A DNA stretch of 64,000 nt from Rickettsiella endosymbiont of Miltochrista miniata (GCF_964031245.1 NZ_OZ035017.1:215402-279401); one strand, 5' to 3'. Numbered from the stretch's first letter, positions 8,170-8,293 are shown. The notes: generated by a model from the letters alone, not told the origin. Numbers and translations are program-made.

Positions 8170-8293
8170 TATACTCACAGCAATGGGGTTTTTGGCAAGG
8201 CGCTGCGAGAATGAAGCAACCGGAGTGTATTATCATACATGAGGATTGCGAGTTGAGCGGCAACACAGACAAAAATTCTAGTGCGAAGAGTAT
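8170..8293. repeat. Repeat family A copy 1 (~124 nt, MITE-like, imperfect terminal inverted repeats ATACTC...GAGTAT; contains in-frame ATG at 8211)
   Basis: About 90% identical to 13210-13333. Termini atactcacagcaat / agtgcgaagagtat are imperfect inverted repeats. Sits between ileS stop and lspA start. Confidence 0.7.

Follow-up and report, generated by a model that had tools for sequence, protein, structure and literature searches.

A TA-duplicating hairpin element of Rickettsiella and other Coxiellales, with in-frame insertions in priA and sdaA

A 64,000-nt stretch of the genome of the Rickettsiella endosymbiont of Miltochrista miniata (GCF_964031245.1 NZ_OZ035017.1:215402-279401), referred to here in its entirety as the window, carries four copies of a 121-nt repeat, family A. 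The family is very probably a non-autonomous mobile element, i.e., a MITE (miniature inverted-repeat transposable element): TA-duplicating, self-complementary throughout, and abundant in Rickettsiella, Aquirickettsiella and other Coxiellales. This explanation takes in the coding consequences of the insertions as well, above all at priA, where translation would now start inside the element. The MITE assignment follows from the small size, terminal inverted repeats, TA duplication, dispersed copies, hairpin structure and empty orthologous sites. A literature search found no description of this element family in Rickettsiella; the family is new, but its kind is known, with a behavior like that of the Rickettsia palindromic elements (RPE) and an architecture like that of ERIC.

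A preliminary description, made from the window sequence alone, had reported two copies, at 8170-8293 and 13210-13333. Both are real, with 93.5% identity over 123 nt (8171-8293 vs 13211-13333) and a common 19-mer that occurs twice where 0.05 occurrences would be expected by chance, and the window holds two further copies (Table 1). The element measures 121 nt (range ~119-126 by profile span), with TACTC...GAGTA termini; it has no transposase gene, its sole reading frame being the 41-codon stop-free run. To place it more widely, the genome collection was scanned with a two-block core pattern, giving 100 stretches, and copies were counted by a profile search of the window and 103 loci, ~0.9 Mb in all. 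The census total is 155 unique copies. Full-length elements make up 96 of these, and of the 96, 73 have TACTC at the left end and 76 have GAGTA at the right end. In 45 of the full-length copies TA flanks both ends, where the dinucleotide has a background frequency of 8%, and the empty orthologous sites of priA, sdaA, bPH_2/gloB and ileS-lspA each have a single TA. Head-to-tail dimers sharing a TA occur among the census copies, as do nested copies. Duplication of TA is typical of IS630/mariner-type transposases, and points to a TA-specific transposase of this type as the mover of the element.

Judged by its PriA homologs, the window belongs to Rickettsiella / Candidatus Aquirickettsiella (Coxiellaceae). 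Six syntenic loci, together covering all four insertion sites, were compared with it: L001 (from the Rickettsiella endosymbiont of Aleochara curtula), L002 (part of a metagenome-assembled genome), L003 (from a different genus; its PriA is 68% identical), L105, L106 and L107. The closest relative is L106 (PriA 93% identical); the assembly it belongs to bears the name “Wolbachia endosymbiont of Folsomia candida.” Presence or absence of the element differs among the window, L001, L002, L105, L106 and L107, i.e., the insertions are polymorphic.

The imperfect terminal inverted repeats of the preliminary description are part of a longer structure. Copies 1 and 2 have inverted-repeat ends, and over its whole length each forms a single imperfect hairpin, with folding energies of -41.4 and -41.9 kcal/mol (z = -5.3 and -6.5). 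RNA folding had been proposed as a check, and what it brought out is a conserved hairpin with compensatory changes. RNAalifold on a MAFFT alignment of 92 copies gave a poor consensus; the single-sequence fold was projected onto the alignment instead, and pairs were counted. Across the 92 copies the projected hairpin is 92.5% paired, with helices 1-2 at 93-95%. Two-sided changes are found in 26 of the 41 pairs (90 cells; 23 +/- 4.5 cells in shuffled controls, 0 of 500 as high, and 15-39 in slid controls). Of the apical 6-bp stem there are 8 distinct fully complementary versions; 75 of 86 copies have it completely paired. The hairpin may be of importance as RNA or as single-stranded DNA.

The consequences of insertion are clearest at priA, where alignment with relatives, like that at lspA, found both the empty and the filled sites that the preliminary description had suggested looking for. 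The empty site in L002 reads ATGTTGAATA[TA]CTAAAAATT, i.e., ATG TTG AAT A[TA] CTA AAA ATT, translated as MLNILKI; the filled site in the window reads ATGTT-AATA[TA]TACTC...GAGTA[TA]CTAAAAATT. The insertion adds 121 + 2 = 123 nt, or 41 codons, and restoring the G that was lost from the old start region gives a continuous frame, MLNI-YSQQWDFWQGAAKMKQPECINIHEDCELSRNTDKNASAKSI-LKIAIP. As the sequence now stands, ATG 13201 opens a 17-codon frame, the TGA of which overlaps ATG 13251 (ATGA). The copy had been described as lying directly 5' of a housekeeping gene at both loci: this holds for lspA, but the priA copy lies inside the ancestral coding sequence, with the ATG 13201 remnant on its left flank. 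It is in frame because an insertion within a gene survives only if the frame is kept. The order of events would be that the element struck codon 4, that the old start later slipped out of frame, and that translation now starts within the element, with the element's GAGGA serving as Shine-Dalgarno sequence.

Which start codon took over can be judged from the relatives. PriA orthologs have two classes of N-terminus, element-free (MLNILKIA/MFNILKIA) and element-bearing ((M/L)SGNTDKNSSAKSILKIA); gene callers set the starts of the orthologs at the GAGGA-TTG position, M/L-SGNTDKNSSAKSILKIA. In L001, L105, L106 and L107 the element has lost its left half, and with it the old start and the equivalent of ATG 13251; ATGAGGA..GAG-TTG-AGC is retained in all four of these truncated alleles: since it is kept in alleles that have lost the left half, GAGGA-N7-TTG is a conserved start module. 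The Pfam PriA 3'BD profile starts at residue 16 counting from TTG 13293. In L003, a full element lies at a TA 2 nt from the Rickettsiella site; a 1-nt indel rescues the frame, and the start is another internal ATG. Judging from these sequences, this insertion is independent of the Rickettsiella one, with the same outcome. The present priA start in the window is thus most likely TTG 13293, which would give PriA 14 element-encoded N-terminal residues, or 28 if translation began at ATG 13251.

The latter codon had been taken for the only start available to priA, a claim that does not survive the finding of TTG 13293 in frame, with GAGGA 7 nt before it and retained in relatives. Translation from ATG 13251, with a 28-residue element-encoded N-terminus and perhaps coupled to the 17-codon frame from ATG 13201, nevertheless deserves weighing. 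It is the first in-frame start past a stop, with AAGG 10 nt before it; the ATG 13201 remnant retains its native upstream region, and the TGA of its frame overlaps the new ATG; and the GAGGA before TTG 13293 is base-paired in the predicted full hairpin, so that opening it could require ribosomes that come in from upstream. However, ATG 13251 and the whole left arm are missing in four relatives that still keep priA with GAGGA-TTG, its equivalent in L003 is not an ATG, another internal one being used there, and as a ribosome-binding site AAGG, at a 10-nt spacing, is weaker than GAGGA at 7 nt. As the principal start it is therefore doubtful; as an additional priA start in this genome it is possible. 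With TTG 13293 as the most likely start, the priA case forms a natural series in which a selfish element entered an essential replication-restart gene and the gene's start was rebuilt from element sequence, the stages (empty site, full insertion, truncated insertion) being seen across lineages.

The insight that the element can donate an N-terminal peptide extends to sdaA, where an in-frame insert went unseen in the preliminary description. Copy 4 plus TA again makes 123 nt, 41 stop-free codons, here in frame with the original ATG 15438. The empty sites read ATGAC[TA]TTAGTGTG (MTISVFD) in L001, L002 and L107, and the filled site in the window and L106 reads ATGAC[TA]TACCC...GCGTA[TA]TTAGTGTG. 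L106 has the same insertion, ~11% diverged, with the frame intact and a product of 504 aa. SdaA would thus hold a 41-residue insert behind residue 2; the SDH_beta profile begins at residue 45. Two further loci have in-frame copies in mid-gene: in L036, the leucyl-tRNA synthetase (LeuRS) has 41 extra residues, LYSQQWDFGQGATKMEQPSLIKIHEDCELSGNTDKNSGAKSI, separating its first catalytic half from its editing domain, and in L034 a copy lies behind a signal-peptide-like N-terminus.

Copy 3 affects the other end of a gene. Its target was the TA of the TAG stop of bPH_2 (L106 empty site: AAATAAC[TA]TTTTG); the gene has lost this stop and now terminates five codons into the element, and the predicted product has 159 aa in the window against 154 aa in L106. 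Of 30 opposite-sense copies adjoining a gene 3' end, 10 provide the same stop, 16 nt into the element. Copy 3 itself is degenerate: its fold is no longer significant (z = -0.45), and it has a stop in the element frame (ATG AAG TAA).

The lspA copy is an ordinary intergenic insertion. It follows the ileS stop at 8148, its flanks are TA at 8170-8171 and a mutated TT at 8293-8294, and the conserved lspA ATG is 2 nt past its last base. The preliminary description correctly noted that in copies 1 and 2 an internal ATG lies after AAGG (the spacing is 10 nt in both) and that the frame from this ATG, MKQPECI(I/N)IHEDCELS(G/R)NTDKN(S/A)SAKSI, has no stop and is in frame with lspA and priA. At lspA, however, in-frame upstream reading is not required, because ATG 8295 is conserved and the nearest relatives are element-free: the site is filled in L001 (97.6% identical), empty in L106, L107 and L002, and decayed in L105, and LspA orthologs are nearly all 159-160 aa with an MQxRK start. 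The alignment of frames here is coincidental, with a roughly one-in-three chance, since about half of all copies are open in this frame (47 of the 96 full-length copies are stop-free in one forward frame, vs ~7% for shuffled sequence). Two in-frame insertions had seemed improbable; given this chance for copy 1 and survivorship for copy 2, they are not. Donation of a start codon and N-terminal peptide, proposed for both genes, finds support in the empty and filled sites of priA, and not at lspA, which has its own conserved start.

Could copy 1 nevertheless have been adopted by its host, as an RNA structure or processing site in an ileS-lspA operon or as a translated LspA extension kept by selection? 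The spacer and element differ between the window and L001 at only 3 of 145 nt, where four-fold sites in the flanking genes are 68-77% identical (P = 4e-16 vs the neutral rate; P = 0.0013 vs mean coding divergence). Both differences within the element frame are synonymous, the element-terminal GAAGAG lies 4 nt 5' of the lspA ATG, at the place of a Shine-Dalgarno sequence, and family-wide there is a sense bias of 30 to 9. Strong purifying selection on copy 1 was accordingly considered, and was downgraded: the three-way comparison of the window, L001 and L106 is a mosaic, with 9 consecutive informative sites (8151-8315) at which the window matches L001 alone, and the same copy has decayed in L105. 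A recent recombination block, which this run fits, would explain the conservation at least as well as selection. With the site element-free in L106 and L107, LspA orthologs beginning at the conserved MQxRK, and two synonymous changes too few for significance, host adoption of copy 1 is unlikely. The ileS-lspA spacer seems to attract hairpin repeats: in L003 (~18200-18420, minus strand) it holds a different, long near-perfect palindrome, GAAAGTGTCTTCAAATGCACGATGACGGGCAAAAATC...GATTTTTGTCTCGTCCTAGCACATTTGAAGACACTTTC, and the LspA called there has 212 aa.

Over the family as a whole, placement does not follow the pattern of a portable 5' leader or regulatory cassette, the other function that had been suggested from copies 1 and 2. 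Among same-sense copies, 13 of 47 have a start codon <=12 nt from the element end, and among opposite-sense copies 7 of 26 do; other copies are at stop codons, between convergent genes or in mid-gene, and no promoter or terminator motifs were found inside the window copies. Since proximity to starts is independent of orientation, a directional 5' leader was rejected; closeness to start codons fits an effect of TA targeting and survivorship. The count of copies in relatives, also proposed at the outset, finds about half of the full-length copies stop-free and shows no start-codon preference by orientation. The sense bias mentioned above comes from 39 sites with co-directional flanking genes among 83 independent sites (sense 30, antisense 9; p = 0.001), and suggests that transcripts tolerate the element better in one orientation than in the other. 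The idea that element length is always 3n-2, and so designed to stay in frame, was likewise rejected: profile spans are 123 (38 copies), 124 (24) and 125 (9), and because lengths vary, frame compatibility is a survival filter and not a design feature. In these compact genomes, surviving copies accumulate at gene boundaries, in TA-rich start regions and at TAA/TAG stops, and in-gene copies survive if a 123-nt (41-codon) insertion preserves the frame and lacks a stop.

Table 1. Element copies and associated gene features in the window (positions counted from its first base)
Feature	Position	Strand	Description
Copy 1	8172..8292	+	Full 121-nt element (TACTC...GAGTA) in ileS-lspA spacer; nhmmer E = 1.4e-38
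lspA (signal peptidase II)	8295..8774	+	Conserved ATG 8295, 2 nt past last element base (8292)
Old priA start remnant, ATG 13201	13201..13254	+	1-nt deletion puts ATG out of frame
Copy 2	13212..13332	+	Full 121-nt element at TA of priA codon 4; TA duplication 13210-13211 / 13333-13334
Internal ATG of copy 2	13251..13253	+	Possible alternative or additional in-frame start, 14 codons 5' of TTG 13293
Element-borne Shine-Dalgarno sequence and start (predicted)	13281..13295	+	GAGGA 13281-13285, 7-nt spacer, TTG 13293
priA (primosomal protein N')	13293..15365	+	First 14 residues element-encoded (from the predicted start)
sdaA (L-serine dehydratase)	15438..16952	+	504 aa vs 462-463 aa in element-free relatives
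Copy 4	15445..15565	+	Divergent 121-nt element at TA after sdaA codon 2; profile E = 1.7e-5
bPH_2 new tail	22773..22790	+	TAT ACT CTT TGC ACT TGA = YTLCT*, element-derived
Copy 3	22775..22892	-	Degenerate subfamily copy between convergent gloB-like and bPH_2 genes; profile E = 2.8e-21

The preliminary comparison with RPE, as MITE-like repeats tolerated as in-frame, stop-free insertions in housekeeping genes, holds up well. Like RPE, the family consists of short palindromic mobile repeats of an obligate intracellular bacterium, found in frame within housekeeping genes and kept as peptide segments, here in PriA, SdaA and the LeuRS of L036. It differs in host (Coxiellales, Gammaproteobacteria, vs Rickettsia, Alphaproteobacteria), in size (121 nt vs ~150 bp), in that its copies are mostly intergenic at gene boundaries, and in that it would also supply a Shine-Dalgarno sequence and start codon. 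Because the host is gammaproteobacterial, sequence membership in RPE-1 to RPE-10 is unlikely, and the likeness, drawn by analogy, rests on behavior. In-frame fusions of MITEs with genes are known for RPE (Ogata et al., 2000, as summarized), ERIC and QMITE1 (PMC10969869; PMC2759123).

In architecture, the closest parallel is ERIC/IRU/RU-1 of enterobacteria (Hulton, 1991; Wilson and Sharp, 2006; Delihas, 2007, PMC2759123), a ~125-nt imperfect palindrome with TATAC ends, ORFs (open reading frames), transcribed intergenic sites and occasional fusion to host genes. Against the Coxiellales profile, the 127-bp ERIC consensus has marginal scores of 8.3 and 5.9 bits, higher than any of 300 shuffles (maximum 2.5); with the combined profile the score is 5.6 bits, and the profile of the GC-rich relatives described below gives no match. 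Core sequence and taxonomic range also differ (Enterobacteriaceae and Vibrionaceae for ERIC, Coxiellales-like bacteria here), and membership in ERIC is doubtful, the similarity being marginal or missing. The nearest well-studied relative, Coxiella burnetii, has MITEs too, and some QMITE1/QMITE2 copies overlap ORFs and change protein ends. QMITE1 is 300-400 bp long with direct repeats of 2-3 nt, and QMITE2 150-190 bp with 7-11 nt and a GTAG REP (Wachter et al., 2018, PMC5896051). Identity with either is ruled out by size and direct-repeat length (121 nt and TA here), with published descriptions setting them apart. Correia/NEMIS elements of Neisseria and TA-duplicating MITEs of the Tc1/mariner/IS630 type resemble the family in duplicating TA, in measuring 100-160 bp, in having terminal inverted repeats and in their position in transcribed spacers beside genes. 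Part of this is covered by PMC10969869. Correia/NEMIS has no sequence relation to the family, and neither an integration host factor (IHF) site nor an outward promoter was found in the window copies.

The interior of the element has wider connections than its arms. Its core, GGCAAGGCGC...AGCAACCGGARTGTA-loop-TACATGAGGATTGCGAG...GCAAC, also occurs in repeats of the gammaproteobacterium WLWT01, Polaromonas, Rhodocyclaceae, Pseudogulbenkiania and Pseudomonas, the outer arms of which are unrelated to those of the window element; with the GC-rich members from Polaromonas and Rhodocyclaceae the window element has AGCAACCGGAATGTAC-loop-GTACATGAGGATTGCGAGC in common. The direct repeats in WLWT01 appear to be ~4 nt or more, as read by eye from 8 copies. 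A single relic of the core is present in the nuoL-nuoM spacer of E. coli (726 of 5426 complete genomes); the copy in strain C (L104 385-450), with the core hairpin CGCACAGCAACCGGAGCGTACTTAAGTACGTGAGGATTGCGAGCACTG, is unannotated. Some GC-rich relatives (L035 6163-6330, also L023 and L103) have secondary small-hairpin insertions in the right arm.

The GC-rich relatives also resemble a known RNA, sX9 (RF02228): they score 36.3, 34.9 and 28.6 bits against its Rfam model (best E = 8e-4; gathering score 44), by way of the antisense strand of the apical hairpin and left arm. sX9 is a Northern-validated 75-nt Xanthomonas RNA without known function (Schmidtke et al., 2012, PMC3300014), and is among the most often annotated Rfam small RNAs (PMC9029176), as expected of a dispersed repeat. 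This opens the possibility that what is repeated is a structured small-RNA gene, with the core as a functional RNA, and not a transposable element at all, an idea to which the strong covariation and the sense-orientation bias would also be congenial. It is nonetheless very improbable. The window copies have no relevant Rfam match, either in the whole window at the gathering threshold or for copy 1 at E <= 10, and the match of their relatives is confined to the antisense strand of the left half; TA duplications, clean empty sites, copies in coding sequences and at stops, dimers and nesting are those of a mobile element, and the absence of promoter and terminator motifs inside the window copies points the same way. 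With the repeats as mobile elements, the family ties the widely annotated, function-less sX9 to a dispersed repeat superfamily.

A different possibility, compatible with mobility, is that the ~70-nt core hairpin is itself a functional module, e.g., a protein-binding or RNA-processing site, and not filler between transposase-binding ends. The core hairpin has an invariant purine-rich internal loop and stems with compensatory changes, and the repeats that carry it, from Gamma- and Betaproteobacteria, differ in target duplication and are unrelated at their termini; among them are those of Coxiellales, the E. coli relic and Xanthomonas sX9. On balance this seems improbable; if true, the sense-orientation bias would reflect a role of the core in the mRNAs it has entered.

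Several observations weigh against a non-autonomous, TA-duplicating MITE as the full explanation. In the ~0.9 Mb of loci, neither a parent insertion sequence (IS) nor a transposase with the same ends turned up. Partial profile matches considered as IS ends turned out not to be such, and the adjoining ORFs are not transposases. The conservation of the superfamily is in the interior and not at the termini, which is unusual for an end-recognised MITE. Element length is not fixed at 3n-2, as the spans given above show, and the start codons, including the one that ribosomes would use on priA, are predictions from sequence. Finally, the presence and absence of copies 1, 3 and 4 is at odds with the window, L001 and L106 being related by a simple tree, a conflict that recombination or lineage sorting would account for.

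From 5290 to 10210 of the window, short blocks alternate in whether L001 or L106 is nearer. This alternation points to homologous recombination between Rickettsiella lineages, or else to old polymorphism that was sorted among them. The assembly from which L106 comes (“Wolbachia endosymbiont of Folsomia candida isolate MAG-FC1,” JBHGAL, GCA_041949685.1) has contigs syntenic with the window and is element-rich, with loci L106, L010, L013, L028, L038, L041, L050, L052, L056, L057 and L067; the bin appears to be mislabelled or to hold a Rickettsiella-like genome. The window PriA and LspA have no record in an exact-protein look-up.

The family extends RPE-like in-frame insertion to the Coxiellales, and has practical consequences for genome annotation: owing to the element, the starts of priA, lspA and sdaA are called inconsistently in these genomes. 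Its insertion polymorphisms are usable as strain markers, and reveal recombination among Rickettsiella lineages.

Other repeats are present in the window. A second dispersed family has two 85-nt copies, 88% identical (GTCATGGCGAGGCCGAAAC...GGCCATCC), at 16970-17054 and 53247-53331; one of them lies directly past the sdaA stop, with the motif at the orthologous place in L106 (12369) and L076. At 3023-3681 there is a tandem array with a 99-nt period, its copies 67-77% identical (repeat family D1). Three tandem paralogous units at 61487-63971, which have their 5' regions (ATGAA..TTGAATTATTCTAC...), internal blocks and, upstream, a 77-nt repeat in common (families D2, D3, D5 and D7), look like a small tandem gene family.

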